Assembly (NCBI GenBank): GCA_963811165.1
Contig: CAWEQH010000008.1
Coordinates: forward strand, 384,001 to 448,000
DNA from: an uncultured Nitrospiraceae bacterium
Lineage (GTDB): Bacteria; Nitrospirota; Thermodesulfovibrionia; Thermodesulfovibrionales; UBA6898
Length of the DNA stretch: 64,000 nt
Reading direction: 5' to 3'
The number at the start of each line of letters is the position of its first letter. Position 1 is the first letter of the stretch. Shown here piece by piece: positions 8,392 to 39,058 of the stretch. A model generated the notes under the pieces. That model ran no database searches, had not been told where the DNA came from, and saw nothing but the letters and a program-made list of their open reading frames with translations. A program made the position numbers and the translations under genes.

Positions 8392-8397
8392 ACAAAA

Positions 8398-8406
8398 AGT
8401 ATACCA
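8398..8406 (-). promoter_or_regulatory. extended -10 promoter (TGgTATACT) 6 nt before the gspE ATG, likely leaderless
   Basis: Minus strand reads TGGTATACTttttgtATG; no SD present. Confidence 0.5.
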
Positions 8407-8525
8407 TAGGGGGGAATTTTTTTACCAAGAACAGGCCCTAAGGCTCCGCAGCTAAAGGTAATTTCAGTAAAAGAAAGCATTACTGTATAATACCTGGGAA
8501 AGAGGACAAAGGCACGATCAATAGC

Positions 8526-15930: not shown

Positions 15931-17250
15931 TCATTTGCCTGATCCGTCCAGAGTTTCCTCATCTTCGACGACGAGCACGACTTTCGGGCCGCCAGGCAGT
16001 GATCTTACCGCCGGTTCGGCGGTAACGACCCCGGCTTTCTCCTCGAGGCGCGGCAGACAGATCGTGAATATCGTGCCTTTTCCCTCTTCGCCCGAAACCA
16101 CTATCTTCCCCTGGTGCTGTTCCACGATCCCGTAGACCGTGGAGAGACCGAGGCCGGTCCCCTTGTCTTTTTCCTTTGTCGTGAAAAACGGGTCGAATAT
16201 AAAGGGCCGTGCGCTTTCAGGTATCCCGGTACCCACATCGCTCACAGAAAGCAGCACGTAACTGCCCGCGGGGATCCCCGCATATCTGGCGGCCGCCTCA
16301 ACGCCGAGATCACGCCCGGAGGTCTCTATCGTCAATTTGCCGCCAGCGGGCATAGCATCACGTGCGTTTAAGGCCAGGTTAATGATTATCTGCTCCATCT
16401 GGGTAGGGTCGGCCCTTACAGTTCCGATATCCGGGGCCAGGAGCGTCACAAGCTCGATATCTTCTCCTATCAGACTCTCAAGCATCTTGCGGATGCCCTT
16501 GACACAGTCATTTAGGTTCAGCACGCGCGGCTCGATGATCTGCTTTCGGCTGAAAGCCAGAAGCTTGTGGGTCATCTCCGCCGCCTTCAGCGCCGAGCCG
16601 CTTATCTTCTGCAAAATCTTGTACTGTGCATCTTCGGGCTTGAGCTTCCGCATAAGGGTCTCCGAGAACCCGATAATCGCGGTCAGATAATTGTTGAAAT
16701 CATGGGCGACGGTACCGGCGAGTCTGCCTATCGACTCCATCTTTTGCGACTGGTAAAGCTGCTCTTCGATCCGCTTTCTCCGGGTGATGTCGGAGATTAA
16801 GCCGTCGTAAGCGACAAGACGCCCGTCTTTGTCGCAACGGGGGACGGACGTGTTCCTGACCCAGCGAATGGAACCGTCTTTATGGATTATGCGGTGTTCG
16901 ATTGCGGGCACAATCTCGCCGGACAGCACTTTTTCGGTCTGTCCCATTACCGCGTCTCTGTCGGGTTCGTAGATCATCCTGTACCAAAGGTACGGGTCTG
17001 AGGCATATTCCTCGGGTGAGTAGCCGGTCAGGTCGACGCAGCCTGCTTTGTGGGAAGTGGCGACGGGAACCCCGTTCTCTATCGTAACTGTGTATATATA
17101 GTCTGTCACAGATTCCAGTAAGCGCTTACACCTTTTTTCACTCTCGATCAGTTTTTCTTCGGCCCGGTTGCGTTCCGACACTTCATGTTCAAGCTCCTCG
17201 TTGAGCCTCCGGATTTTCTCCTTGGCCGCCGTGCGCTTCGCTACCATCAA
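15931..17250 (-). CDS. PAS-domain hybrid histidine kinase, truncated (receiver cut after VLVVEDE); possible pseudogene
   Basis: [39 protein letters not shown]; ends '[17 protein letters not shown]'; upstream in-frame linker lacks a proper start. Confidence 0.75.
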
Positions 17251-21456: not shown

Positions 21457-21945
21457 TTAGCCCAGGAGGGAGGCAACTTTTTTGACGAGGGAAAGGATCA
21501 ATCTGTGCCGCGAGAGCTTCGACGGACGGATGAACCTCCTGGCTATGAGCCAATTGAACGGGAATTTCAGATGGAAATTATAGCGCGAAGACCTTACCGC
21601 CCTGCCCATCACATCTTCAAACGGAGTGAACCCATCATCGCCTTCGACAGCGTCACCCCTCGTAATTATGCCATGCCCCGTAATCTTTATGACCCTGTGC
21701 AATACGAGTCGGCCCTCCCAGTTCCGTAAGAAGGCGATATCGCCCACCCGCAACGATTTGCCGGGTTGTATCTCCACGTTGTCTCCATGCTTAATGAAAG
21801 GTGACATGCTGCTCCCGCCTGCCACAAAGACAAGGCCTTTGCCGCTTCCGAGCACTTCTTGAGCTATGTCATGGAAGTTTTCCCTGCCGATGTCGAACAT
21901 GCCCGATGGTAATCCCTTTTGGAAAAGCGCCATGTATTTCCTCAT
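21457..21945 (-). CDS. S24/S26 (signal peptidase-like) peptidase, soluble
   Basis: GSSMSPFI, GDI, LHRV, TRGD motifs (Ser/His, Sec11-like); no TM anchor. Confidence 0.8.
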   Translation of the reverse strand: MRKYMALFQKGLPSGMFDIGRENFHDIAQEVLGSGKGLVFVAGGSSMSPFIKHGDNVEIQPGKSLRVGDIAFLRNWEGRLVLHRVIKITGHGIITRGDAVEGDDGFTPFEDVMGRAVRSSRYNFHLKFPFNWLIARRFIRPSKLSRHRLILSLVKKVASLLG

Positions 21946-22862
21946 CCCGAGACGAACCCTTCAAGCAAGTCCGCCGCCTTCTGGTCCGGTGTGAAGTGAA
22001 GATCATAGGAAGGTACGGCCGAGACCAGTTTACTGCAAAACGCAAGGATCATCGTCAGTGTCCCAGCGTCGTACCATGGTATGGTAGTTACCGGCATAAG
22101 CCGCTCCAGCGCTTCATTAGGACCTATAGCCACAATCCTGTTTGTTTCGCTCTGCATCAGAAAGTATATCCCCGTGAGTGGAAGGTCCTTATTTATAGCA
22201 ATGCCTGCATCGCCCGGCCATGGCGTTCCGAAGGCCCTGAAACCTTCCCCGACCTTCCTGACTATCACGCGGTCATCACTGAGCGCCTCGTGCCCAGCCG
22301 AAGAAAGGAGCCTTGAAATTGTGCTTTTCCCTGCGCCGGATTTTCCCGGAAAAAGACAACCTTGTCCGCCCACGTCAGCGAAGGAGGAGTGGAACAAGGC
22401 CCCTTCCCTATGTGCGAGCACGTACATCATCAATAGTTGATCCAGCGGATAGATCAGAGGATTTCTGACCATCTTTTTGCCTTCAACTTCCACAATGGTC
22501 ATGTCACCGCAATAGATGGTCACTTTTTCGAAGGCGCGATCAAAGCGGGCCACGCATTCCGGACCACCGGGTAAAGAAGGGTTTAGGACCAAATAATATT
22601 CGGCTCCCTTTTTACACATGGCCCATGAATCGCCGCATCTGAAGATTTCCGTCAGCTGCCCGGTGCGGGGAAGGTCTTTTATTTTCAGGTCTACAGGAAT
22701 AGGCTGAGCCCCTGCGTCACGGATGTCTGCGCTTGCAATAAAGGGCTCATACGTTGCCGGGTTGGGCTCAATCAGTAATGGCATATCTACAGAGCGAATG
22801 AGGAAGCTAATATCCGCGATCGATATTCTCATCGAGCGCGAGCTGCGGTCCATTACAGGCAT
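21942..22862 (-). CDS. HprK-related P-loop kinase-like protein (RiPP-cluster associated)
   Basis: LFHSS...FPGKSGAGKST Walker A, LSDDRVIV, GTPW; start uncertain (22832-22862), shortened to avoid overlap with the precursor. Confidence 0.75.
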   Translation of the reverse strand: MPVMDRSSRSMRISIADISFLIRSVDMPLLIEPNPATYEPFIASADIRDAGAQPIPVDLKIKDLPRTGQLTEIFRCGDSWAMCKKGAEYYLVLNPSLPGGPECVARFDRAFEKVTIYCGDMTIVEVEGKKMVRNPLIYPLDQLLMMYVLAHREGALFHSSFADVGGQGCLFPGKSGAGKSTISRLLSSAGHEALSDDRVIVRKVGEGFRAFGTPWPGDAGIAINKDLPLTGIYFLMQSETNRIVAIGPNEALERLMPVTTIPWYDAGTLTMILAFCSKLVSAVPSYDLHFTPDQKAADLLEGFVSG

Positions 22863-22881: not shown

Positions 22882-23064
22882 TTAAGATCCATACGCTCCA
22901 GGCACGGAACAAGGCGAAAAACCGCACGATCCGCCATTTTTCCCGGGCGCTCCATTAGTTGATTTGCAGTTGACAGCCAGCACTTCTTCGGCAGCCAGCG
23001 GTATGGTCCTCAATCTTGGTTTGTCATAGGGCTGTTTGGAGATTTTTTCTTTCTTCTGTTTCAT
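22882..23064 (-). CDS. putative RiPP precursor peptide (60 aa)
   Basis: SD AAAGGTG; MKQKKEKISKQPYDKPRLRTIPLAAEEVLA-VNCKSTNGAPGKNGGSCGFSPCSVPGAYGS; YxxPxL leader, Gly/Ser/Cys-rich core. Confidence 0.8.
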   Translation of the reverse strand: MKQKKEKISKQPYDKPRLRTIPLAAEEVLAVNCKSTNGAPGKNGGSCGFSPCSVPGAYGS

Positions 23065-24160
23065 GATCATCACCTTTCGATAAACGGTTTATTATGCGTC
23101 GATAACGAAGCTCTCCCATCTTGCAGATATAGTCGGAGAGTATGTCCTCCGACCCGCTTTCCAGTCTGAAAAAAGAGGGACAGTAGCCGCAGAGATTTAT
23201 TTTTTCGCAGCCCCTGCATGCGAACCCGGTACCTGCTTTTTTTCTTCTTATCCGAACTGTGATATCGTCCCAGCCAGCGGAGAACCCGCCTCCGGAGATG
23301 TCGTTCTGAATATCCAGAGTCATCATACAAGGTTGAAGCATGCCGTAAGGGTCGACATGGAAACCGGTCACCCCGGCCCCGCACCCGTACAGGTCATCAG
23401 TCAATATATGCCCCTTCATTCCTTGAAAGAAATTTTCCCAGAGACGGACCCGCTTAGGGTCGGAAAATTCCCTTTCTATTGCCTCCTCGGGGGAGACCCT
23501 GAGACCCAGGGGCGCTTTGTCCCCGTCTGTACAGGGTGATATCGCCGCGTCGAACCGGAACCGGACGCCTAATCCCTCGGCGATATGCTGCATTTCTAAT
23601 AATTCATGACTGTTTGTTGTCATGAGTATCGTCTTGAGATTTACCTTTATGTTATTTTCCAGGAGCCGCCTTATCCCCAGCAAACACCTTTCGTAAGAGC
23701 CTTCGACCCCCGTTACTTCTTCATATGTGCGTGCAGTGGCCCCGTAAAGACTTATCTCCACTAGAAGGGGGGGGAGGTCCCTAAATAGCCCGATGACTTC
23801 ATCCGTTACCAGAGTGCCATTGGAGAAGACCGTGATCAAGAGCCCTTTTTCCTTTGCATTCCGGTAAATCTCCGGAAAGTCTGTCCGCAAAAGGGGCTCC
23901 CCGCCGGTGATAAGCAGGTTCAAGCACCCTGCCTCTGCAATTTCATCGAGCAAAGAAATAATCCTTGCGGTGCCCATTTCACGCGACTGTCGTTTCCGCC
24001 TTGAATCATCCCCTCCCAAATAGCAATGAACGCATCTGAGGTTGCAGCGATAGGTGATCTCAAGGCTTCCTGAAAGGGGTATATGATCTCTCGCAGACTT
24101 CAGGTAGAACTCGTTCATGTATTCTGCGGCAGTGGGCCATTTTCCATCCGGGCACTGCAT
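23024..24160 (-). CDS. radical SAM / SPASM domain peptide maturase
   Basis: CNLRCVHC, TGGEPL, SPASM CGAG...DPYG..QPC...CRGCEKINLCGYCP. Confidence 0.92.
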   Translation of the reverse strand: MQCPDGKWPTAAEYMNEFYLKSARDHIPLSGSLEITYRCNLRCVHCYLGGDDSRRKRQSREMGTARIISLLDEIAEAGCLNLLITGGEPLLRTDFPEIYRNAKEKGLLITVFSNGTLVTDEVIGLFRDLPPLLVEISLYGATARTYEEVTGVEGSYERCLLGIRRLLENNIKVNLKTILMTTNSHELLEMQHIAEGLGVRFRFDAAISPCTDGDKAPLGLRVSPEEAIEREFSDPKRVRLWENFFQGMKGHILTDDLYGCGAGVTGFHVDPYGMLQPCMMTLDIQNDISGGGFSAGWDDITVRIRRKKAGTGFACRGCEKINLCGYCPSFFRLESGSEDILSDYICKMGELRYRRIINRLSKGDDHETEERKNLQTAL

Positions 24161-24162
24161 CT

Positions 24163-24483
24163 TCAGCTTGTCCCTTCATGGATCAGCCCCGCTTCCAGGA
24201 GCTCCGCAATAAACTCCTGAATGTCGGAGTCGGCCTGTTCCTTGCCCACATCGAACCTGGCGATAATATCGTCACGGATCTCATTCACCTTTTTTTTGCC
24301 GTCCAGACCGTCCCATATATATGCCGCGACGGGAGTAAGGGTGAAGATATTTTGCATATCGGCCAGCTGCCCTTTGACCGGAACAAGGAACAGTTCCCCG
24401 CCTATCCTGCGGGAGACGACATCCTTGTCGGGCAGAAATACCTTGCCCCATATGTCGCTATGCGATCGGTGAAACGATTCCAT
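24163..24483 (-). CDS. PqqD family protein (RiPP recognition element)
   Basis: VVSRRIGGELFLVP...FTLTPVAAYIWDGLDG...FDV..EQADSDIQEFIAELLEAGLI. Confidence 0.9.
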   Translation of the reverse strand: MESFHRSHSDIWGKVFLPDKDVVSRRIGGELFLVPVKGQLADMQNIFTLTPVAAYIWDGLDGKKKVNEIRDDIIARFDVGKEQADSDIQEFIAELLEAGLIHEGTS

Positions 24484-24497
24484 AGTCGTCTTTATCT

Positions 24498-27400
24498 TTA
24501 TCTTAATCTTATCTTAAGCGCCGGATCGCCCAGGATGCCGTATATGTCGGTCATAAAGGGCAGGGAGCCGGTCAGCTTGTATTTTGCGAGTGCCTGTTTC
24601 ACCGCGTCGCCGAGGGTCTTTTTCTTGTCTGTGAAAACGGCCTTATAGAACTCCCTGTTCAGTATTTTAGCCTCTGAGTCGTCTGAGAGTCCAGTGGAAG
24701 ACCATACTGCAGCCGCACCGCCGTTGTCTTTCAAGACAAGCAGACTGCCTAACGTGGAATACCCGGGGATTGCAAATTCACCCGCCGAACATGTCATGGC
24801 AGTCACGATGGGAAGTCCTGCTGCATTTGGCAGAAGGGGCATATCGTCAGTAGTCAGCACCCCCTGTCCTGAAAGCTGGTACGGCGAGGCATGGCCTATG
24901 TAGTTGAAAAATGCCGCCCCGATGCCGAGGTCATTGAAAAGCATGGTTCTTGCGGTGTTGGCAGAGACCTCCGAAAGGTATACCTTTTCCCTTATATAGT
25001 TGTAAGGGAAAAGGGCCGCCAGCCCTTCGCTTTCGGCTGTAAAATCCCCTGCCTCGTCGGGGTTGTCGGCAAGCAGGATTATCCGGTTGCCCTTGGTCTT
25101 CTCAAAGTTCTTTATGTTGGTTATGGCATTCTGCAACTCCTTGGGCGTCAGCGCCGGCAGTCTCCCTATCGCCATCTCGGGCAGATGGTTCCCATTTATA
25201 TCGGCCAGAGAATTGTCGGATGTGGCCAGACCGTATAACGACGGGACCAAAGCCGGAGGGATCAGGTTCCAGCCGAACCCCAGGTTATCCCTGTAGTCCC
25301 ATGTGCCCTCTCCGGCCAGGACCACGTATTGCGGCGCTTTCTTCCAGTTGGAATACGCATACGAAAGGAACTTCCTGATGGCGTCCGGGCTTGAAAGACC
25401 GAAGTTGAATTCGTTCATGATATCATCGAGATTTACTGACCATGGTTTTTAGTCCCTGTGATGTCCTGTAATCCGCAAGGGGTTTGGCGGCTGAGGCCAG
25501 TTCCGACGGGGCTATCACGATGTAGTCGGCCGCGTTACTCCTCGCCTGCAGATTCGATGGGTTGACCGCCTCGGCGTTAACGACCTTAGTGACAGCATCT
25601 GCCGCTACCGACATATAAAGCGCTCCCGGTGAAACAGGGGTCAGGCTGACCTGCCAATCGCCGGTAGTGCCGGTAACAACGGCAGAGGTGTTCAGTTTCG
25701 GCAGTTGTTGGTTCGCAATGTCCAAGACAAGTATGTCCGGAGTAGCCGAAGTGAACCCTCCGATACTTACGCTTTTGTTGCCGTCTCCCCTGAAGACCAG
25801 CTCATTGCCGTCTGTGTTATATAATCTTTTGTATTTGAGGTCGAAGGAGTCTATGAGATCATAACTCCAGGGGACTCCTGCATCGAGCAGACCAGCCACC
25901 TCAAGCGTATTATTCCCCTCGACAATCAAAGACTGAGAGAAAGAAGCGGTCAGGGTATAGGCGTCCAGGCCGCTCCATAGTCCTTCACCTATCTGATGAT
26001 CGTTTAGCTTCACCACCACATGATGGTCGGGAGTCATTCCGGTGTCCGATCCGCCAAGGAGATGCAGCTGCAGGGTGGCCATCTCCTGAGTCTCCGCTTT
26101 CCCGGTTACCTGGAACGAAAGTTCTTTTGGAAGGTCTGAGTAAGCAGGGCTGAGGTAGATGCCCGTCCAGGCCCACAGGTCCGCCTCAGGGTCGGTGAAC
26201 TGGCCGAGGTTCGGGATCATGTCCTGTTCGAGGTGCAAGGTGTCTGTGAAGGTCTCATCCCCCGTTACAGGGACAGGCTTCGGCCGGTCTCGTTGGTCAT
26301 GGGCGTTCCCTTGCCGCTATCGATCCAGTATATGTTATCACGGGTATACACATTGTCCGTCCCAACGCCGTAGAAGAAGATGCCGGTGTTGTTCTGTGCA
26401 GGCAGATAGGCAACCTGCTTGCCCTGGCTGCTCATGGACAACTGGTTGTTTTTGATCATGGCAGAGGCTTTTGCGTAGCTGATACCCAGCATGGATGAGA
26501 TATCGTTTGCATCCACGTAATAGAGCCCATTGTCCGTAATAGGGATCTTTATGCGGATTCCGGTCTGTTTCGTATTGGGGTCCTTTACCGATCTTTCGAA
26601 AGAGTCCCGTGACTGTAAGCGGGCCTTCTCTGAGACCGACAGTCCACGGGGCTCTCTGGTGTAGTCGGACGAAGAGGAGGCGTTTACGCCGGCTGACCTT
26701 GCCGCACTGCTCTTGAGTGCCTGAGAGCCGATAACATCTCCGCCTCCGACCACGATGGAGAAGGGGCCGTATATGATTCGATTGCCGCTCTTTTCAACCT
26801 CGACAAGCTTGTACTTATAGGCTCCGCCAGGTGAAGCATCCCTGTCGATAAGTGTATATGTTCCGCCATTAGGCGACGTGAGCATCCCCGGCAGCAGGCC
26901 CTCTGTCACACTCTGGTATTTACCTGTGGCAGGGTCAAGTCTCTGCAGGTAAAAGCCCAGCGTATTGTTCTCCAGCGTCGTCTCCCACTCCACCACCACC
27001 TGGCCGTTAAGCTCATGGGCACTGAAGGAGGAGAGGACCACCAGAGTCGGAGCAGCAGGACTGTAGTACCCAAAATTGACCCCGCTCTGATTGCCGCCGC
27101 CAAGGTTTACCGTCTCCTGGCCGTTGAAAGGACCTGTTGTGCCCTCGGTCTTCTCATAGGAAGTGGAGAAACCCGTCAGCACGCCTGCCGCGTCCGTAAT
27201 TTTGATCGTATAGGTGCCGCTGGCCAGGCCATTAAAAATGTAAGTGCCGTCTGAAGCAGTGGCTGTTGTGGCGACAACAGTGCTGTTTTGTAACAGATCG
27301 ATAGTTACCCCGGCCAGCCCGCCTTCTCCGCTGTCGATTGCCCCGTTATCGTTGCTGTCTTGCCATAAAGTACCTGACACGCTCCGGGGGGTCGTTGCCC

Positions 27401-30400
27401 GATAGCCGAAATTTTCTGTCAGGACACTAACCCCGCCGCTAATGATATATCGCTTGCTGCTGGCCGCACCTTCCTGCATCGCTGTCTGTCCCGGTGAATG
27501 TATACCCAGTCAACGGGGTCTGCGGGGAGCCGCTTACGCATTCGATACTCACGATATAATTTCCATCGCTCAGACCGGAAAAGATGTAGTTGCCGTTTGC
27601 ATCAGTAGTAAGGGTGGCAACAACTCGTCGCTACCGTCTATGCGCCGAGTTCCGGAATCGGTATATAACTCACTGTAATTCCGCTGAGGCCGGGCTCGCC
27701 GGCAATCCTGGGCACCGTTGCCGTTCATATCATTAAATACCGTATAGCCGATCGCCCTTTTCAGGCTGTACCCGAAGTTGGGGGCAGAAGAGTAATCAAC
27801 ATTGCCCGCAAGATTGACGATCTGTTTTGAGCCGGTTACCGCAGAGGTGGTCGTGCCGTAGTAGTTGGCGAGCTTTCCGCCTGTGTCGGTGATCCTGACG
27901 GTATAGTCCGCCCCGCCGCCGGTAAGCCCCGAAAATGTGAATAAGCCATTGGCGTCAGTCGTCGTATTTGCAATGGCATTGAGACTCGCATCGAGCAGGT
28001 CCACAGTCACATAGGGTATCCCGGTTTCACCGGCGTTAAAGACGCCGTTGCCGTTGGAATCGGACCAGACGCGGTCGGTGATGGTATAGGTCGATGCGCT
28101 ATGGTAGCCGAAATTGGCAAACAGGACGACCTCGCCTGAACTGAGGTCCTGTATAAGTAAGGGATTGCCGGACGGCGCGGTCCTCGTATACCCTGAAAGC
28201 TTCGTCTGGGTTTCATCGATTCGCAGGAAGTAGTCATTCGTGCCGTTGGCTGTGACACCGGTAAACAGATAGCTTCCGTCCGGCGCGGTAGTAACGGTAC
28301 TTACTTTCGTATCGGTTGCAGGATTGAATATCCGGTCACCGTTGTCCAGCCAAAGCTCTACGCTCACACCGGCCAATCCGGCTTCGCCCGCATCGCGAGT
28401 CCCGTTACTGTTTGCGTCGCTCCAGGCGTAATTGCCGATGGCCGCAAAACCCGCAGCCGATTTATACCCCAGGTTCGCGTTCGTAAGAGACTGACCGGCG
28501 GTAAGATTGAAGGTGTTCGTGCGGTTGTCCGTGTGGCCTGATGGCGCCGATTGCTGCAACCCGGAGGGAATGGTCCTAGGGGTAACCTCCACGTAGTAGC
28601 CGTTACCTGGCTCCATGCCGGTAAAAAGATAATGTCCTGTGGAGTCTGTCGTTGTCGTCATGACCGTGGCACCAAGCCAGTCCTTCAGGGTCACCTCCAC
28701 ATTACCAGTCCCGGTTCGCCTATATCCTGAGCGCCGTTGCTGTTTGAGTCAAGCCAGACCCGTCCCCCCGCTTCCGCGCTCTGTGAAGAAGGGTTCACGA
28801 CCAGATTCGTAACACTGGCGCTGACAGGCAAAGTAATTCGATTGCAGTTACTAAAGCGGTATTGGTTATCTGGTCAATTCCAGCGGCAAGGGGATTGTCT
28901 ACTGTGACATTATAAGTGAGCGTCAATGTGCCGACCTGCCGGCAGCGTATACCCAACGCCCTTGGTAAGCAGCTCCGGCGGAGCGTTCGGCTGGATATCG
29001 ACGTGAAAATTATCTGCGTAGAAGTAATGACCCGTGTTAGTGTACCCAGCCGAAACTACCAGTCTGACTCTGGTGTTGCTGCGAAAAGTATGTCGCAGGG
29101 ACGGAAAAACTTAGTTGCGTGAATGCAGTAAAGCGCCCCGATAAAAGTGGCAATGTTGTTCCAGGTGGTACCGTTCGTTGAGACATCTAAAGTAACGGTG
29201 TCCCCGGTCCCGGCACCTGTTTGACTACCATCGAAGATTATTGAGGCGCTGCCAGCCGATGAAAGATCGACACTGCGCTGTATTCCCCACGGACGAGTCA
29301 TGCCGTTAGCATCCTCGAAAACGCAGTTGCCCGCCTGTTATCCGCACTTGTCCACCGCCAACGTTATTGTCATCATTTATTTCAGTCCAGTTCGAGGCCC
29401 ATGTGCAGCTTGCCGTTATTGTTCGTATAGACACTGATAGTGAAATTGTCCAGAAAACTGCATATCGGTGACGCCTGGAGCACTACCTGCCACATAACTC
29501 ACGTCCAGATGGCAAAGGATCGTAGAGAGAAACACCCGTAACGGAATACCGCTGTGGATTCGTCACCGTAACGTATAGGTAAACTGGTTGCCTGGATACA
29601 GGGGATTCGTTGCATTAGAGGTCTTTGTGACCGTAAGATTGCCAAAAGTATTAAAAGCGAAATCCGAAGCGACAAACGTTTGGCTTGCTCCTGCCACGGT
29701 CCTGGTGCCGCTCGCCTGCACCACGTTGCGGGTGATATCGCCTACGGCGAAAATCTGCGTAGTCTGTGCAGTGAACGTGATGGTGATCGTCTGGTTCGGC
29801 GCCATATTGCCGAGCATACTGCTGGGCCAGGTCAGGATCAAATTGCCGCCGCTAATCGTGGGATTTGCGCGGCGCCGCTTATTGTGGTCATAGTCCGCCA
29901 GGGTGATCGTCGTGCTCTTGTTGACATACTGCCAGCCCGTTGGCAAAGTATCGATCACACTGATCCCATTTACATCAAAGTGATAAGAATTAACCACGAG
30001 GGTATAAGTGGATTGCGAACCCGATGCTGTTGCGACCACGACCGGGTTTGCGGATTTCTGGACTGTGAGCACCTTGTCGATAAAATCGCCGCCGGGGAAT
30101 GAGACATAACCCAGATCAATGGCCGGTGTTCCTGTAGGTGCTGTATCCGGATTTTGACCGTATGCGATCGCAATGGGACCGGTTGCCCAAACATGGCTGT
30201 TAGACATATCCCCGTCAGTCGCATCATACACGTATTGGGTCTGTAAGCGGTTAAGCGTATATGTATGATCGGCAACTCCATCATGATTTCTATCGACAAA
30301 GACCCGGGTATTGTCCTGGACAGGGGTGATAAAGATTCCTGAGTCATCGTAATCTCCCGCGGGGATAGGCGTACTGGTATGCCCCGGGAGCCCATCCGAA

Positions 30401-31627
30401 GAAATGCTCGTTGCCGAGCAGAAATGACGGGACAAGGGGATAGCCCCATTCATGGGTTGGTCCTCCGGTGTCGATGGTCGATACACCCCAGAAGACATCA
30501 GTAGCCTTCAGATAGACGCCGGAACCTGCCGGCACATACCCCCCGGTCATCTCGCTGAAAGAGCGTGTCTGTCCAGCGGGAACGCTGAATGAGCCCGAGG
30601 TCGTGCTGGTCTGGTAGTTGATAGTCAGGGCAGAAGACTGCGGGTTAAAGAGATAAAGCTGGGTGGGGAAGTTCAACCCCGCGTCGCTCGGAACAGGGGC
30701 ATAATATTCCTTGTCCCACATGCCGCTCGGAAAGGCGCTGAAGCCCCGGGCCTCAAATGTCGCGGTCTGGTCCCCTACTATGTAGTTTACCTGGAGCGTA
30801 TCTGAGCCCTGTATGACTGCTCCGGTAGGAAGGGATACCGTGCCTGTAGTCGGAAACGGCGCGAAACGATCCAGCAGGAAACTCTCTCCGGCGTTCAGCG
30901 TAACCTGAGTTGCGGTCTGGGTGCAGGGGTTATTGTGACTTATGCAGACAGTATCGCCGAATACCCCGTCCTTATTGAAATCAAAGGTGACAACGGTGTT
31001 ATCTTTTGTTGCCTGAATCAGTGCGAACACCCTTCTGAAATCGAGATAGTTCCGGGGAGCACCATAAAGATCGTCGCCGAAGGGCATGATATACCTGACC
31101 ATCTGCGGCTTGACCGGATAGACCTCCCAGGCCAGAGAAAAAACAGTTCCGTCGGTCTCATCCCAGCTCGAGCGCGTGACAGTTACCACTCCGCCGGCCA
31201 CATAGATGCGGTCGCGGCCGTCATAAAAAGTGGCGGTCCCCCTCGGGTTTACCGGAATGTTGGAGCTTTCAAATATCTTGCTGTCTCCGGCGTTGGCCAG
31301 GACATACTTCTCATCGGCAGTTGCGTCGGGGTTGTTCGGGTCGAAATTATATCCGTTCTCCCAATGGTCGTAGTAGATCGTAGTATCTGGGGACCAGGCA
31401 ACAACGCTGATGATTGTATGCCTGGGAGCGTTTAGGGCAACGGGACCGGCAGCACCGATGTCGGCCCATACCTGTCCCATGATGTTTTCATCACCGGGGA
31501 TGTAGTACTCGGAATAACCTGCAGGGGCAGAGCCGTAGCTGTAAGTCGCGCATGTTAACAGGATTATGAGACTTAATAATAATCCAGGAAGACTAATTAT
31601 CGGGTCCTTTGATCTCTTTGAAAGCAT
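24498..31627 (-). pseudogene. second giant surface protein (IgGFc-binding-like N-terminus, DUF11, SdrD-B-like repeats, C-terminal C25 peptidase module), broken by multiple frameshifts
   Basis: Collinear fragments 30344-31645, 29563-30498, 29056-29301, 27570-28700, 26265-27479, 25423-26238, 24498-25418; signal peptide and SD at 31627; SdrD-B motifs (IGNYAWSDANSNG..DAGE.GL.GV.V.L). Breaks may be real or assembly errors. Confidence 0.8.
24506..27026. repeat. copy A of ~2.52 kb direct repeat (C25 module)
   Basis: Near-identical to 31732-34252 (offset 7226); one extra C at 25436 and one missing A at 26283/4. Confidence 0.95.
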
Positions 31628-31729
31628 ACCTATTCCTCCCGTCAATCGAGCACTGCCGATGCGCGATAATGCCTCGTGTTTACATTTATACTGGGTTATT
31701 CATATTTCATTTCTTTTTTTTAATGGTCT

Positions 31730-34700
31730 TTATCTTATCTTAAGCGCCGGATCGCCCAGGATGCCGTATATGTCGGTCATAAAGGGCAGGGAGCCGGTCA
31801 GCTTGTATTTTGCGAGTGCCTGTTTCACCGCGTCGCCGAGGGTCTTTTTCTTGTCTGTGAAAACGGCCTTATAGAACTCCCTGTTCAGTATTTTAGCCTC
31901 TGAGTCGTCTGAGAGTCCAGTGGAAGACCATACTGCAGCCGCACCGCCGTTGTCTTTCAAGACAAGCAGACTGCCTAACGTGGAATACCCGGGGATTGCA
32001 AATTCACCCGCCGAACATGTCATGGCAGTCACGATGGGAAGTCCTGCTGCATTTGGCAGAAGGGGCATATCGTCAGTAGTCAGCACCCCCTGTCCTGAAA
32101 GCTGGTACGGCGAGGCATGGCCTATGTAGTTGAAAAATGCCGCCCCGATGCCGAGGTCATTGAAAAGCATGGTTCTTGCGGTGTTGGCAGAGACCTCCGA
32201 AAGGTATACCTTTTCCCTTATATAGTTGTAAGGGAAGAGGGCCGCCAGCCCTTCGCTTTCGGCTGTAAAATCCCCTGCCTCGTCGGGGTTGTCGGCAAGC
32301 AGGATTATCCGGTTGCCCTTGGTCTTCTCAAAGTTCTTTATGTTGGTTATGGCATTCTGCAACTCCTTGGGCGTCAGCGCCGGCAGTCTCCCTATCGCCA
32401 TCTCGGGCAGATGGTTCCCATTTATATCGGCCAGAGAATTGTCGGATGTGGCCAGACCGTATAACGACGGGACCAAAGCCGGAGGGATCAGGTTCCAGCC
32501 GAACCCCAGGTTGTCCCTGTAGTCCCATGTGCCCTCTCCGGCCAGGACCACGTATTGCGGCGCTTTCTTCCAGTTGGAATACGCATACGAAAGGAACTTT
32601 CTGATGGCGTCCGGGCTTGAAAGACCGAAGTTGAATTCGTTCATAATATCATCGACGTTTATGACCATTGTCTTGAGCCCCTGTGATGTCCTGTAATCCG
32701 CAAGGGGTTTGGCGGCTGAGGCCAGTTCCGACGGGGCTATCACGATGTAGTCGGCCGCGTTACTCCTGGCCTGCAGATTCGATGGGTTGACCGCCTCGGC
32801 GTTAACGACCTTAGTGACAGCATCTGCCGCTACCGACATATAAAGCGCTCCCGGTGAAACAGGGGTCAGGCTGACCTGCCAGTCGCCGGTAGTGCCGGTA
32901 ACAACGGCAGAGGTGTTCAGTTTCGGCAGTTGTTGGTTCGTAATGTCCAAGACAAGTATGTCCGGAGTATCCGAGGTGAACCCTCCGACACTTACGCTTT
33001 TGTTGCCGTCTCCCCTGAAGACCAGCTCATCGCCGTCTGTGTTATATAATCTTTTGTATTGGAGGTCGAAGGAGTCTATGAGATCATAACTCCAGGGGAC
33101 CCCTGCATCGAGCAGACCAGCCACCTCAAGCGTATTATTCCCCTCGACAATCAAAGACTGAGAGAAAGAAGCGGTCAGGGTATAGGCGTCCAGGCCGCTC
33201 CAGAGCCCTTCACCTATCTGATGATCGTTTAGCTTCACCACCACATGATGGTCGGGAGTCATTCCGGTATCCGATCCGCCAAGGAGATGCAGCTGCAGGG
33301 TGGCCATGTCCTGCGTGTCCGCTTTCCCGGTTACCTGGAACGAAAGTTCTTTTGGAAGGTCTGAGTAAGCAGGGCTGAGGTAGATGCCCGTCCAGGCCCA
33401 CAGGTCCGCTTCAGGGTCGGTGAACTGGCCGAGGTTCGGGATTAAGTCCTGTTCGAGGTGCAAGGTGTCCGTGAAGGTCTCATCCCCCGTTACAGCGACA
33501 GGCTTCGGACCGGTCTCGTTGGTCATGGGCGTTCCCTTGCCGCTATCTATCCAGTATATGTTATCACGGGTATACACATTGTCCGTCCCAACGCCGTAGA
33601 AGAAGATGCCGGTGTTGTTCTGTGCAGGCAGATAGGCAACCTGCTTGCCCTGGCTGCTCATGGACAACTGGTTGTTTTTGATCATATCAGAGGCTTTTGC
33701 GTAGCTGATACCCAGCATGGATGAGATATCGTTTGCATCTACGTAATAGAGCCCGTTGTCCGTAATAGGGATCTTTATGCGGATTCCGGTCTGTTTCGTA
33801 TTGGGGTCCTTTACCGATCTTTCGAAAGAGTCCCGTGACTGTAAGCGGGCCTTCTCTGAGACCGACAGTCCACGGGGTTCTCTGGTGTAGTCGGAAGAAG
33901 AGGAGGCGTTTACGCCTGCTGACGTTGCCGCACTGCTCTTGAGTGCCTGAGAGCCGATGGCATTTCCGCCTCCGACCACGATGGAGAAGGGGCCGTATAT
34001 GATTCGATTGCCGCTCTTTTCAACCTCGACAAGCTTGTACTTATAGGATCCGCCAGGTGAAGCATCCCTGTCGATAAGCGTATATGTTCCGCCATTAGGC
34101 GACGTGAGCATCCCCGGCAGCAGGCCCTCTGTCACACTCTGGTATTTACCTGTGGCAGGGTCAAGTCTCTGCAGGTAAAAGCCCAGCGTATTATTCTCCA
34201 GCGTCGTCTCCCACTCCACTACCACCTGGCCGTTAAGCTCATGGGCACTGAAATCAGAAAGAATGGCAAGAGTAGGCGTGATCGTAGTCGTATCCTGCGC
34301 GATATTGTTGTTTGTGTTTGCTTCACTCTGACCGGTGAGGCTTACTATTGCAGTGTTGGTCAAGGTGTAGGGAGCACTCGGCGATACATTGACCGTCAAC
34401 ATGATGGCCGGGTAGCTGCCTCCTGCGGCAAGCGCGTCAATCCTAGTGCAGGTGAGTGTCCCCAGGACACAGCTCCACCCTGTACCGGAGATAGCCGTCG
34501 CGGTGAGACCTAAAGGAAGGGTATCGGTTACTGTTACTGTCCCGGTTGTCGCTCCCCCGCCTATGTTGCTGACCGTGATCGTATACGGTGCGCCGTTTTG
34601 CCCCAGGTGGAAGGCGCCGGTGTGAGTTTTCGATACCGTCAGATCAGGCGACTGGGTTACCGTCGCAGAATCCGTTGCTGTATAACCGCCCGTGGCGTCA

Positions 34701-37700
34701 CCGCCGCCGCTTACAGCGACACTGTTGACCAGAGGACTCCCTGCATTTAGCGCCACGTTTACGGTCAACGTTATGGGATTGCCGTTGTTGCCTGCATTTA
34801 TTACAGTATTTGAGGTGCAGGTCACCACTTGCCCGGCAGCACCGCAGGCCCAGCCCGTCCCAGTGCCGGACACATATGTCAAACCTGCCGGCAAGGTGTC
34901 TGTCACCGTTATGGTCCCGGCTGTAGCAGCCGTGCCTATATTCCGGGGCGTAATCGTGTATTGTGCACCGTTTTGCCCCTGGGTGAAGTTGCCGGCATGG
35001 GTCTTCGTTACCGTCAGGTCCGGCGCTGTTGCCAACACTGTCGTTGGATCTGTTGCCGTATCGTTGGTCGCGTTGGTTTCGCCTCCGCCACTGACGACGA
35101 CAGTGTTGTTGCCGGTAGCTGCGGTTGCTGACAGACTAACGGTCAGCGTAATCGCAGGGTAGCTCGCCCCTGCTGCAAGCGCGTCACTACGCGTGCAGGT
35201 TCGCGTGCCAAGAACGCACGTCCATCCCGGTCCGCTTATGGCTGTTGCTGTGTACTGAGCACTCGGCAGGGTATCGGTTACCGTTACCGTCCCTGTTGTC
35301 GGTGATCCGCCTATGTTGTTAACAATGATCCTATACTGTGCGCCGGTCTGGCTTCGGTAGAAGTTGCCGGTATGGCTCTTCGTAACCGTCAGATCAGGCG
35401 ACTGGGTTACCGTCGTTGGGTCGAAGGCCCTGTCGTTGCTTGTGTAGGTTTGATTACCGCCGCTGATAGTGGCGATGTTAACGAGCGAAGAAGCCGCATT
35501 GGGAGAAACGTTGACGGTCAGCGTGATGGGGTTGCCGGTAGCGCCCGCATTGATGTTGCTGCCAGTTGTACAGGTTACCACTTGGCCGGCAACACCGCAG
35601 GCCCAGCCAGTCCCGGTGCCGGACACATAGGTCAAACCCGCGGGCAGGGTGTCGGTTATCGTTATGTTCGCGGTCGCACTTGCCGTACCTATGTTTCTCG
35701 GCGTGATCGTATACGTCGCGCCATTCTGCCCCTGGGTGAAGTTGCCGGCATGGGTCTTCGTTACCGTCAGGTCAGACGCTGTGACAGATACAGTCGTTGA
35801 ATCTGTTGCCGTATCGTTGCCCACGTTGGTTTCGCCTCCGCCGCTTACGCTGACGTTATTGACCAGTGGAGTCACTGCGCCGGCTGCCACGTTGACAGTC
35901 AGCGTTATGGGATTGCCTGCGCCACCACCTGGTGTTATGACGGCACTCGATGTGCAGGTCACCACCTGCCCGACAGCGCCGCAGCTCCACCCCGTCCCGG
36001 TGCCGGACGCATAGGTAAAGCCGGTCGGCAAGGTATCGGTTACCGTTATCGTCCCGGTTGTCGGTGACCCGCCTATGTTGTTAACAGTGATCGTATACTG
36101 CGCGCCGAGCTGCCCTCTGTAGAAGTTGCCTGTATGGCTCTTCGTAACCGTCAGGTCAGGCGCCGTCGTTACTATCGTCGAATCTGCTGCCGTATCGTTG
36201 TTTGTGTTGTTTTCTCCGCCACCGCTGACACTGACATTGTTGACCAGCGGACTGCCTGCGCCCGCTGCCACGTTGACAGTTAGCGTAATGGGGTTGCCGT
36301 CGCTTCCTGCCGCTATGGATGTGCTCGATGTGCAGGTCACCGCTTGCCCGACAGCCCCGCAGGCCCAGCCTGTCCCGATGCCGGACACATAGGTCAAACC
36401 CGTTGGCAGCGTATCGGTTACCGTTATCGTCCCGGCAGTGGGCAAGGTGCCTTCATTGCTGACCATGATCGTATACTGTGCGCCGCTCTGTCCCTGGAAG
36501 AAGTTGCCGGTGTGGCTCTTCGCTACCGTCAGGTCTGGGCCCACAAATGTAGATGCGCTCGATGTATTATTGGCAGGATTGGCGTCTGTCGAGGTAGTGG
36601 TGATGGCAGAACTTGCCGGTACAATTCCTGAGCCAGGCGCGGTGTAACTGAACCCGATGTTAAAGGCTTCAGAGCTTGCAATGGTAGTCGGAAGTCCGGT
36701 AAAGGTTATCACCCCGGTTGTATTATCGTAACTTGGTGTCACTCCTGTGGGAAGCTGGGTAAAGGTAATCCACAGAGGATAATAACTGCTGCTGCCTATG
36801 GTCGCCGAATAGGTCACCGCAGTTGCTGTAGTTGCTCCATTGTTCGTAAACAAGATATTGCCGGTAACCGTAGACCATGGCGCCGCTATTGATAGAACGC
36901 TTATTGTAGTCATGACATCGGTTGTGCCGATGAAGGTGGTTATAGAATCATTATTATTTGCAGGAACGCCGTCCGTGTCCGTAGTGCCAATATGAGTATT
37001 GACCGTAACTGACCCGCTCGCAGGGGCCGTATAACTGTAAGTCATTGGCGCAGTCGTCGTAGCGCCAAGCACCATCTGTCCTGCCGTAAGTGTTGTAGGC
37101 AACGCGGTGCCGCCAAAGGTTACAACCCCTGTAATATTGTTGTAGCTTGCTGTGGTACCCGTAGGAAGATTGCCGAAAGTTACGGTGCCAAGCCCCGGAG
37201 ACAGTGACATCGCATAGGTTATGCCGTGGGCTGTCCCGGTACCGTTGTTGGCAAAAGCGAAGGTCCCCTGCACAGTGCTTCCTGCAGTCGCAGTGGCTGC
37301 GCCGGTCACCGTGGTTGCCGCATCAACATTTACTGCTATGACTGACAGGGTTTGAACTGAGGGGGTAAAGGAATAATATGTCCAGAGATTGACGGCTTTC
37401 GTATCCCCCCATGCATTATCTGTAACAACACAATCAAGGTTTGAGGCAACGGTGCCGGCATTTACACCCCAGGTGCGGTAGGCGGTCGAAGAATCAATGC
37501 CGCTAAGGTTGTAGGCAGGGTTCGGCTGGGCCGGGGTTGCGTTAGGGCAAAGGATTCCATTGAGAGTACCGACGGCGATTCCACTGTCCAGAACATACCC
37601 GCGGTCGTCATAAAAGACCGTGCTATCAGGAGCACCGGAGCCGTTTAAACGGGTGATATGCGGACCGCCGTAATAATTATTCTCGGCATCGATGATCGGG

Positions 37701-39058
37701 AAATGGACCTCGCCGTTACGGCCGGAAACCCGGAAGGGATACGGTCCCCCGGCCGGAAAGTCGACATTGGCATTGTTCCTGCCGTCCCAGGCGACGGTGT
37801 GACTGCCGCTTGCGGCAAGTCCTGTCAATGTACGGTTGTTCACATTCGCAGGGTCAAAATCAATCCCATCGAGACTGATCACAATCTGGTAGGTGATGGT
37901 GTTAGAGGTATCGAATGTAAACGTTCCTCCGGTCCCTAAGTACGAGGTTGACCCGGAGACATTGCCGACAAAATTAATGTTGCTGACTGTCGGCGAAGGC
38001 GGCGTGAGCGGAATGTTGAGAGCTGAGAGAACCCGGTTGACCTCAGCAGCGTAAGCGCCTGAGTAACTTACGTCGCTGAAAAATAGCGGATATTCTGCCC
38101 TTTGCGTTGTCGCCCCCATAGGCAGGGTAGTTACCAGTGGCTCATTACCGCGCAGGTCTTTATATAGCGGCTGGCCAAAGTCCATAAATCCCAGTGAATT
38201 TGCATATGTGGCATAGCCATTGCCGTCCAGCCCATTGAGGTCCTGCTGGTAACGATAGCCGTCCAAAGTAACATAGTAGACGGAGTAATAGACAGGCCGT
38301 GAGTTGGCGCCGGTAAAACCGATGAAGGCATAGGTAAAGAGTCGCCCGTTAATATCGGCGATGGACGCTGCGGTTGCACGGACAGTGACGTCCCACGCCG
38401 ATACGCCGCAATAGTCGATAGAGGGAGTGCCGATGACGCCGTCAGGGGCATTGCAAGTGCCGGGCACTGCTTCAAATAGCACGCCATAAACGCCGGTAAC
38501 GGGCGCCCGGTAGGCACAAGGCTGAAATCCGCCTCCGCCCGACGCATCAGTAGAATTATCAGCGCTTCTTGGTCCGGCCAGTTCCTGGGCGCGGGTGGCA
38601 ATTAAGCCTGTGGTTCCACCGAAGTAGTGCGGTCCGGGTTGTGTAGAGCCCGCCGAGCAGGTGAAATCGGGTGTCCCCTGATTCGCTGCGTTGTAAATTT
38701 CATCGCCGGAGACGCCGAAGTCCTGAGGGTTATAAACGTTTATGTCACCGCCACTGGACCGGTTTCTTGAGCCGAGCACAATATATTCCCCTTGCTGGGC
38801 ATACACATACAGAAAGCCGCTACGCCTCACCTTCCCTACATAGCGATTAGGCGCGAGGATCGTACCCGGCTCAAGGTCGAGATTCGCCCTGAAACCCCCG
38901 GCAGGATAGCTCGCCGGGTAGAGAGTACGACTCCCTTCAGCATATGCCCGCGCGGTCAGTAAACCAGATATACCTAACAAGATACCAAGCACCAGAAGGG
39001 AGATAGCCCTCAAGCGGCAAGATCGGAAATGCAGAGGCAACCACGCAATCTTTTTCAT
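31730..39058 (-). CDS. giant secreted surface protein: N-terminal domain, DUF11 repeats, PT..LS.FSA domain, C25 (gingipain/PorU-like) cysteine peptidase
   Basis: Signal peptide (RAYA|EG); six PDLTVTK...DTLP...N repeats; ADYIVIAP, YVVLAGE, IGRLP, NYIGH (His), AMTC (Cys), LGDPAL; start set at ATG 39058. Confidence 0.9.
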   Translation of the reverse strand: MKKIAWLPLHFRSCRLRAISLLVLGILLGISGLLTARAYAEGSRTLYPASYPAGGFRANLDLEPGTILAPNRYVGKVRRSGFLYVYAQQGEYIVLGSRNRSSGGDINVYNPQDFGVSGDEIYNAANQGTPDFTCSAGSTQPGPHYFGGTTGLIATRAQELAGPRSADNSTDASGGGGFQPCAYRAPVTGVYGVLFEAVPGTCNAPDGVIGTPSIDYCGVSAWDVTVRATAASIADINGRLFTYAFIGFTGANSRPVYYSVYYVTLDGYRYQQDLNGLDGNGYATYANSLGFMDFGQPLYKDLRGNEPLVTTLPMGATTQRAEYPLFFSDVSYSGAYAAEVNRVLSALNIPLTPPSPTVSNINFVGNVSGSTSYLGTGGTFTFDTSNTITYQIVISLDGIDFDPANVNNRTLTGLAASGSHTVAWDGRNNANVDFPAGGPYPFRVSGRNGEVHFPIIDAENNYYGGPHITRLNGSGAPDSTVFYDDRGYVLDSGIAVGTLNGILCPNATPAQPNPAYNLSGIDSSTAYRTWGVNAGTVASNLDCVVTDNAWGDTKAVNLWTYYSFTPSVQTLSVIAVNVDAATTVTGAATATAGSTVQGTFAFANNGTGTAHGITYAMSLSPGLGTVTFGNLPTGTTASYNNITGVVTFGGTALPTTLTAGQMVLGATTTAPMTYSYTAPASGSVTVNTHIGTTDTDGVPANNNDSITTFIGTTDVMTTISVLSIAAPWSTVTGNILFTNNGATTATAVTYSATIGSSSYYPLWITFTQLPTGVTPSYDNTTGVITFTGLPTTIASSEAFNIGFSYTAPGSGIVPASSAITTTSTDANPANNTSSASTFVGPDLTVAKSHTGNFFQGQSGAQYTIMVSNEGTLPTAGTITVTDTLPTGLTYVSGIGTGWACGAVGQAVTCTSSTSIAAGSDGNPITLTVNVAAGAGSPLVNNVSVSGGGENNTNNDTAADSTIVTTAPDLTVTKSHTGNFYRGQLGAQYTITVNNIGGSPTTGTITVTDTLPTGFTYASGTGTGWSCGAVGQVVTCTSSAVITPGGGAGNPITLTVNVAAGAVTPLVNNVSVSGGGETNVGNDTATDSTTVSVTASDLTVTKTHAGNFTQGQNGATYTITPRNIGTASATANITITDTLPAGLTYVSGTGTGWACGVAGQVVTCTTGSNINAGATGNPITLTVNVSPNAASSLVNIATISGGNQTYTSNDRAFDPTTVTQSPDLTVTKSHTGNFYRSQTGAQYRIIVNNIGGSPTTGTVTVTDTLPSAQYTATAISGPGWTCVLGTRTCTRSDALAAGASYPAITLTVSLSATAATGNNTVVVSGGGETNATNDTATDPTTVLATAPDLTVTKTHAGNFTQGQNGAQYTITPRNIGTAATAGTITVTDTLPAGLTYVSGTGTGWACGAAGQVVTCTSNTVINAGNNGNPITLTVNVALNAGSPLVNSVAVSGGGDATGGYTATDSATVTQSPDLTVSKTHTGAFHLGQNGAPYTITVSNIGGGATTGTVTVTDTLPLGLTATAISGTGWSCVLGTLTCTRIDALAAGGSYPAIMLTVNVSPSAPYTLTNTAIVSLTGQSEANTNNNIAQDTTTITPTLAILSDFSAHELNGQVVVEWETTLENNTLGFYLQRLDPATGKYQSVTEGLLPGMLTSPNGGTYTLIDRDASPGGSYKYKLVEVEKSGNRIIYGPFSIVVGGGNAIGSQALKSSAATSAGVNASSSSDYTREPRGLSVSEKARLQSRDSFERSVKDPNTKQTGIRIKIPITDNGLYYVDANDISSMLGISYAKASDMIKNNQLSMSSQGKQVAYLPAQNNTGIFFYGVGTDNVYTRDNIYWIDSGKGTPMTNETGPKPVAVTGDETFTDTLHLEQDLIPNLGQFTDPEADLWAWTGIYLSPAYSDLPKELSFQVTGKADTQDMATLQLHLLGGSDTGMTPDHHVVVKLNDHQIGEGLWSGLDAYTLTASFSQSLIVEGNNTLEVAGLLDAGVPWSYDLIDSFDLQYKRLYNTDGDELVFRGDGNKSVSVGGFTSDTPDILVLDITNQQLPKLNTSAVVTGTTGDWQVSLTPVSPGALYMSVAADAVTKVVNAEAVNPSNLQARSNAADYIVIAPSELASAAKPLADYRTSQGLKTMVINVDDIMNEFNFGLSSPDAIRKFLSYAYSNWKKAPQYVVLAGEGTWDYRDNLGFGWNLIPPALVPSLYGLATSDNSLADINGNHLPEMAIGRLPALTPKELQNAITNIKNFEKTKGNRIILLADNPDEAGDFTAESEGLAALFPYNYIREKVYLSEVSANTARTMLFNDLGIGAAFFNYIGHASPYQLSGQGVLTTDDMPLLPNAAGLPIVTAMTCSAGEFAIPGYSTLGSLLVLKDNGGAAAVWSSTGLSDDSEAKILNREFYKAVFTDKKKTLGDAVKQALAKYKLTGSLPFMTDIYGILGDPALKIR
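31732..34252. repeat. copy B of ~2.52 kb direct repeat (C25 module)
   Basis: Near-identical to 24506-27026. Confidence 0.95.

Follow-up and report, generated by a model that had tools for sequence, protein, structure and literature searches.

A conserved cassette pairing a radical SAM enzyme with an HprK-like kinase and an S24/S26 peptidase, a predicted RiPP pathway in an uncultured Nitrospiraceae bacterium

The window analysed here is a 64,000-nt stretch of contig CAWEQH010000008.1 (positions 384,001 to 448,000; assembly GCA_963811165.1) from an uncultured Nitrospiraceae bacterium. It contains a cassette of five genes in the order RRE, radical SAM/SPASM enzyme (rSAM), precursor peptide, kinase and S24/S26 peptidase (hereafter the S26 protein), all of which are intact (Table 1). 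The limits that the initial annotation drew around this locus, 22882..24483, stop short, since the kinase and S26 genes after the precursor belong to the cassette too. A scan for promoters and terminators gave matches at chance level. Elsewhere in the window, a hybrid histidine kinase ORF (15931-17250) runs only a few residues into the receiver domain before it stops and is possibly frameshifted.

Table 1. Features of the cassette and of the genes upstream of it
Feature	Position	Strand	Characteristics
S24/S26 peptidase	21457..21945	-	PF00717 above cut-off; TIGR02228 E 1.1e-9
HprK-like kinase	21942..22853	-	PF07475 E 1e-6 and TIGR04249 E 3.3e-9, both below cut-off
Precursor peptide ORF, 60 aa	22882..23064	-	YxxPxL leader, AEEVLA, Cys33-Lys34, Cys47, Cys52, C-terminal Gly-Ser
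Radical SAM/SPASM enzyme, 378 aa	23024..24160	-	CxxxCxxC at 39/43/46; C-terminal Cys 260, 278, 315, 318, 324, 327, 346
SD-like site AAAGGTGA	23070..23077	-	5 nt before precursor ATG, within rSAM coding sequence, read directly
Discrete RRE (PqqD family)	24163..24483	-	PF05402 E 7.6e-17
Giant Ig-like-repeat and C25 (PorU-like) gene	24498..31645	-	At least 7 frame changes, from decay or assembly error
Intact 2442-aa secreted protein	31730..39058	-	PF01364 E 1.8e-74, PF01345

The precursor ORF runs from 23064 to 22882 and ends in TAA; its translation is MKQKKEKISKQPYDKPRLRTIPLAAEEVLAVNCKSTNGAPGKNGGSCGFSPCSVPGAYGS. The initial annotation placed its three cysteines correctly, gave it an SD of its own, which the SD-like site bears out, and set it beside the rSAM and PqqD/RRE genes, where it lies. 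It also described the precursor as nested in the 3' end of the rSAM gene. The two genes do overlap, with 41 nt of the 183-nt ORF lying before the rSAM stop at 23024, and the word nested holds for that part only. Overlap of this kind is common (19 of 47 measurable loci). The ORF is not a chance frame: all 38 candidates returned by a protein search are homologues of the precursor, 62-78% identical and mostly 60 aa long. Their alignment shows little or no variation at Y, P, EE, CK, the last two Cys and the terminal Tyr-Gly-Ser. Pfam and NCBIfam gave no family match for the precursor, an Atlas search returned 30 matches without a common Pfam family, and a search of the organism's own genome found no second precursor. 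The core contains no Asp or Glu and has a Ser at Cys1+2. Two other readings of the peptide were rejected. A lipoprotein, suggested by the lipobox-like L-x-G-C before Cys1, is contradicted by a leader that contains acidic residues and lacks any hydrophobic stretch; selenocysteine read-through is excluded in the window by the TAA stop.

The cassette is widespread. Among 61 related genomes the rSAM was matched in 34 at E 1e-40 or better, and 33 of these carry the cassette; the other genome (G031, rSAM match at E 5.7e-44) was counted as cassette-negative, which gives 28 negatives. With 2 of the 64 parts of a species collection scanned, the cassette turns up in seven or more phylum-level groups, and the record titles of close loci name Nitrospirota, Desulfobacterota, Omnitrophota, Binatia, Acidobacteriota, Myxococcota and Chloroflexota. 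We defined close loci by an rSAM score of at least 340 bits and obtained 59 (58 distinct, L046 being a duplicate of L030). By script, an RRE is present in 57 of them, a kinase in 58, an S24/S26 gene in at least 48 and a C25 gene within 4 kb in at least 28; several of the missing genes fall at contig or flank ends. The S24/S26 and C25 figures are minimum values, since the flanks or contigs run out and each fused ORF received one label only. The small ORF that the initial annotation expected to be conserved beside homologous rSAMs is found in 56 of the 59. Acidobacteriota genomes were sampled evenly, and 25 of the 121 match the rSAM at E 1e-70 or better. Fisher tests are descriptive only, as kin are not independent. 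In gene content, order, motifs and co-occurrence the five genes form one conserved operon, and this operon is almost certainly a RiPP pathway; the reactions assigned to it below are predictions.

Several loci vary on this plan. One clade (L025-L033 and L059) has Trp leaders with an extra Cys (WxKPxC), a kinase with Asp-Glu and no linked C25 gene; several of its members have an inverted kinase gene, ABC transporter or EPS-export genes occur as neighbours, and three (L026, L030 and L031) have two tandem precursors. Two or three related rSAMs occur together with related Ser-ending precursors in L060, L064-L069, L079 and L081, with up to four such precursors in L067. In L051, which has the cassette enzymes, the stretch between rSAM and kinase (8239-8500) yielded no precursor.

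The precursor family as a whole follows a common pattern, [Y/W]xKPx(L/C)xxIxLxxEE(A/V)(V/L)xxxCK, followed by 11-16 residues, a Cys, mostly 4-8 residues, a Cys, mostly 5-6 residues and a final Ser. The leader consensus is YEKPxLRxIxLxAEExxxxGCK. Of 69 precursors with a parsed CK, 63 have exactly three Cys, and in 67 Cys1 lies 20-21 residues past the Y/W. The residues at -3 and -1 to Cys1 are mostly Leu/Ala and Gly, respectively, which does not fix the cleavage site. In the 63 cores, Ser or Thr is found at Cys1+2 in 32, the window's core included, and Gly at Cys3+4 in 39, a count confounded with the terminal Gly-Ser. A search for acceptor residues found Asp and Glu at about 1% each of the cores and none conserved.

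The most constant feature is the last residue. At E <=1e-3, a C-terminal Ser is present in 71 of 72 unique precursors; this count leaves out L062 (Pro end) and L064 and L079 (Ser ends), and with these added it becomes 73 of 75. Three spurious peptide matches had been taken out of the HMM seed. Because the first model was trained on Ser-ending peptides, a second search used a model of the leader alone and loci outside the training set; in it, 25 of 27 peptides again end in Ser, versus 10.6% of background short frames. The two exceptions without the Ser come from L056 and L062 (both Anaerolineae). Among the 50 parsed kinases, those of the same two loci alone carry Glu where the first Asp would stand; as close kin the two loci count as one observation.

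The kinase has the His, a GxxGxGKS motif with the Walker A Lys, and an Asp-Asp pair. DD or DE is present in 48 of the 50 parsed kinases (5 more were unparsed and 3 cut). Its start is uncertain (22853 or 22832), with the longest frame opening at 22955. According to excerpts of PMC9266682 and PMC6993621, PadeK, ThcoK and PsmK act on a conserved C-terminal Ser, which they phosphorylate with a His-Lys-Asp-Asp motif. By analogy, the present kinase probably phosphorylates the precursor's C-terminal Ser. This site has a rival, because LppK and BsfK act on core Ser3 rather than on the C terminus (LppK: PMC13381572, in excerpt) and a Ser is found at Cys1+2 here.

The start codon of the S26 gene overlaps the kinase stop. 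The predicted catalytic residues Ser46-His83-Asp98 are invariant in 45 sequences, and among solved structures SEC11-type signal peptidases are closest. The excerpted text of PMC13381572 describes LppS as an RRE-dependent Ser-His-Asp peptidase that takes off the leader of linear polyphosphorylated peptides (LPPs), and the likeness makes the S26 protein a likely leader peptidase of the LppS type. S26 is fused to a GNAT acetyltransferase in L021 (4423-5427), L022 and L023, of which L021 was scanned, and to a PF14907 transferase in an Omnitrophota locus (L039, 9138-10781). These fusions tie S26 to peptide tailoring.

The rSAM has a SPASM domain with seven invariant C-terminal Cys and no eighth in 24 sequences, which we take to leave an open iron site, as in thioether-forming enzymes. 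Its best solved match, in both sequence and fold, is the sactipeptide synthase SkfB. The fold matches are 14-20% identical and include the C-C-forming SuiB and PqqE, so they do not discriminate the reaction. Scores for thioether families are low relative to their cut-offs (StsB 81/625, SkfB 71/300, PapB 60/340 and AlbA 56/850 bits). On balance, the three conserved Cys of the precursor, the seven SPASM Cys and the SkfB match make thioether formation somewhat more plausible than any other reaction of the rSAM. The best solved match of the RRE is the lasso RRE TbiB1.

A further enzyme co-occurs with the cassette from a distance. A PF14907 (PsmN/LppN-type) transferase is present in 32 of the 33 cassette genomes versus 6 of the 28 others, with two weak or partial matches in each group. 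The genome's only match (L114:10256-11635) is on another contig (G000:C1), within a glycosyltransferase/Wzy/WecG surface-polysaccharide operon (L114:325-15593), where WecG-like and WecA-like genes flank it. Hexose addition to phosphorylated pseudomycoidin needs PsmN, as stated in an excerpt of PMC6993621, and a sugar may, tentatively, be added to the peptide phosphate here too. No exporter was found among the cassette ORFs scanned; an NTP transferase and an exporter are present in some related loci.

Our main reading, to which we give a probability of roughly 45%, is that the product is a thioether-cross-linked, C-terminally phosphorylated and leader-trimmed RiPP, with all of this chemistry predicted. 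Specifically, the RRE would bind the YxxP leader, the rSAM would form thioethers between core cysteines and other residues, the kinase would place a phosphate on the C-terminal serine and the S26 peptidase would cut off the leader near Cys33. The PsmN/LppN-like transferase, encoded in the surface-polysaccharide operon, might then add a sugar to the phosphate. The initial annotation had proposed an uncharacterised thioether-crosslinked RiPP class. An RRE-dependent, non-lasso rSAM RiPP is retained from that proposal, and a plain thioether class is not, given the kinase and the S26 protein. Because of S26, the PadeK-type kinase and the near-invariant C-terminal Ser, the cassette is better read as an rSAM-containing relative of the LPP/paeninodin systems.

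It is rather unlikely that the rSAM performs another radical reaction, such as oxidative decarboxylation or other alteration of the terminal (phospho)serine, as MftC acts on a terminal Tyr, or the formation of C-C bonds or epimers, with the three Cys staying free as metal ligands or pairing later. The top NCBIfam scores of the rSAM do belong to decarboxylating enzymes, MftC (114 bits) and AhbD (113 bits), but both are far under their cut-offs of 265 and 500, and SkfB is the best match in the PDB. In 61 of 63 cores the near-invariant last residue comes 5-6 positions after Cys3, which agrees with this alternative; however, the kinase already accounts for a terminal Ser. The lack of a conserved acceptor residue also speaks for this alternative, although the three conserved Cys would then want a separate explanation. 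Mycofactocin itself (MftC, TIGR03962) was rejected at 114/265 bits, the precursor ending in Ser and not in Tyr.

Two further alternatives concern the giant C25 genes, the broken copy of which lies directly upstream of the RRE. The intact protein has a signal-like N terminus, DUF11 repeats and a C25 peptidase at its C-terminal end, and its nearest curated model is PorU (NF033707), at 209 bits against a cut-off of 420 and E 1e-61. The last 2.5 kb of the tandem genes are 98% identical, while their N-terminal passengers differ. In another genome, G034, two C25 matches likewise occur, separated by 8 kb. Among the 61 relatives, C25 is found in 20 of the 33 cassette genomes versus 0 of the 28 others; these 20 are not independent, because most share one inherited block, and the C25 of one genome (G043) is unlinked to the cassette and has another architecture. 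The other 13 cassette genomes have no C25 match, two of them breaking at a contig end. In Acidobacteriota, C25 is present in 22 of 25 genomes with the rSAM and in 34 of 96 without it. The strict rule that C25 needs the cassette, true in the 61 relatives, therefore fails in these 34. One Acidobacteriota genome, G124, has at least 14 C25-domain frames and no rSAM match at E 1e-70.

The linkage recurs in at least three clades of a quick rSAM tree, with C25 upstream, downstream or fused. S26 and C25 are encoded in a single open frame, 1,850 to 3,090 codons long, in five Acidobacteriota-type loci (L044:9467-15034, L048:9030, L049:9077, L053:9366 and L057:9107), and L055 and L058 begin in the same way and are cut by contig ends. 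A signal-like hydrophobic segment follows S26 in four of the fusions by script threshold and in L053 by eye. S26 is N-terminal of this segment, which places it on the cytoplasmic side.

These data could be read as pointing to an envelope linker, which we consider improbable. The radical cross-links would rigidify the peptide, the kinase and the PF14907 transferase would tie its phosphoserine to a surface polysaccharide, and S26 would free an N-terminal amine as acceptor, to which C25, as a self-processing PorU-like transpeptidase, would join its giant Ig-like-repeat passenger. The skewed occurrence of C25 in both samples, its linkage in clades with differing gene orders, the fused frames with a signal-like segment between the domains and the position of the genome's sole PF14907 match all agree with such a linker, as does the excerpted report that PorU attaches cargo via a peptide bond to an aminoacylated (seryl or glycyl) sugar (PMC7468200). 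The cassette genomes lacking a C25 match, the Acidobacteriota with C25 and no rSAM, the single inherited block behind most of the 20 relatives, the unlinked C25 of G043 and the lack of an exporter in the cassette argue against it.

The same linkage and fusion data have another possible explanation, namely that the peptide serves the C25 protease as a small subunit, activator or inhibitor and/or that S26 processes the giant protein rather than a leader. A thioether-bridged small subunit has a precedent in QhpC. However, S26 is retained in cassettes that lack C25, for example L021-L033, its fusion partners include GNAT and PF14907 domains, and in the C25 fusions it would sit on the cytoplasmic side, which makes this explanation improbable as well.

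Finally, it is very improbable that the locus belongs to a system already defined, whether as a SynChlorMet cassette, as a cyclase-less lasso cluster or as a decaying remnant. In favour of this are weak matches of the RRE to ScmD and of the kinase to ScmC, a lasso-like leader and RRE, and the broken C25 copy next door. Against it, the four Scm models score far under cut-off (84/400, 81/400, 36/125 and 45/100), the window's core offers no Asp or Glu for a macrolactam, and all five genes of the cassette are intact and have been conserved in different phyla.

The cassette family is real, intact and widespread, and it is undescribed within the RRE-dependent RiPPs. We found no paper that describes it in a literature search with subscription journals mostly outside its range, and the supplements of RRE or rSAM mining studies may list members. 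Term searches of the available text of RRE-Finder (PMC7470986), the daptide preprint and PMC13692751 returned no description of it. The same literature search gave no published link of C25 to a RiPP. The family is complete, compact and testable, with precursor, RRE, rSAM, kinase and protease together, and it combines a predicted radical cross-linking step with phosphopeptide machinery of the kind known from LPPs and paeninodins. The repeated linkage and fusion to C25, a secreted sortase-like protease, together with a transferase in a polysaccharide operon, lead to an envelope-related hypothesis that could bear on the role of LPPs, a role called unknown in the excerpted text of PMC13381572. If the linker were real, it would mean RiPP-based protein anchoring in many uncultured phyla not known for type IX secretion.

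Several known systems share parts of the cassette. With PorU, the giant proteins have in common a C25 domain with GH[GA] and TC motifs. They differ in that the protein here is under the NF033707 cut-off and its C25 domain sits behind its own Ig-like passenger. Sactipeptide and ranthipeptide systems (SkfB, AlbA, CteB and PapB) share an RRE-dependent SPASM enzyme with seven C-terminal Cys and a Cys-containing core. In those systems the RRE is fused, whereas here it is discrete, and a kinase and S26 are added. The cassette precursors have no CX3D or nested-hairpin pattern, and membership in the named families was rejected, as the AlbA, SkfB, StsB and PapB cut-offs were all missed.

SynChlorMet (TIGR04248-04251) shares a PqqD-like protein, the HprK-like ScmC, SPASM enzymes and a nearby S24-like gene. 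It has an rSAM pair, ScmE and ScmF, whereas the cassette has one rSAM, and they lie on separate long branches in the tree. Membership was rejected on the four scores given above. In the positive control L029, ScmC, ScmE and ScmF are above cut-off (534, 546 and 202 being the scores of the true cassette). The SynChlorMet cassette of L029 (559-4365) lies about 1 kb from an rSAM-kinase-S26 cassette in the same genome.

The phosphorylated lasso peptides (paeninodin with PadeK, ThcoK, pseudomycoidin with PsmK/PsmN, and Bsf) are nearer. They share a YxxP-type leader, a discrete RRE, a His-Lys-Asp-Asp kinase, a conserved C-terminal Ser and a co-occurring PF14907-type transferase. The cassette locus differs in lacking a macrolactam cyclase, a B2 protease and an acidic ring residue and has an rSAM, three Cys and S26 instead. 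As the initial annotation had stated, no lasso cyclase C or B2 protease was matched among the locus ORFs scanned (13 in one scan and 11 in another); together with a core free of Asp and Glu, this led us to reject lasso membership.

The closest known system is the LPP pathway (LppA/B/K/S/D/N, Bacillota), and the cassette would work like an LPP/paeninodin phosphopeptide pathway with a radical cross-linking step added. As described in excerpts of PMC13381572, the LPP pathway shares a discrete RRE, a [Y/W]xxP leader, an HprK-like kinase, an anchor-less Ser-His-Asp SpI-like peptidase, an NTP transferase and a tie to polysaccharide loci. It differs in the following respects. LPP clusters are described without an rSAM ('radical' occurs 0 times in the main text), whereas the cassette always has one. 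The LPP leader consensus is YxxPxVLxHQxIxFETxxS and the product linear, in contrast to the cassette leader given above. The C terminus of LPPs is variable and polyphosphorylation is at core Ser3, whereas cassette precursors end in Ser. The LPP cluster includes the transferase and an ABC exporter; the present genome encodes its transferase on a different contig, and its cassette lacks an exporter. The part of the PMC13381572 supplement available to us lists non-Bacillota SpI+RRE pairs (Acidobacteriota, Chloroflexota and others) with the precursor 'not determined', among them a 3031-aa Acidobacteriota S26 fusion. In rows 165-167 of supplement 2 of that paper, Acidobacteriota SpI-like proteins continue into a signal-like segment and then into a part that by eye resembles a polysaccharide-export protein. 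By eye, the listed SpI+RRE pairs resemble the present cassette family.
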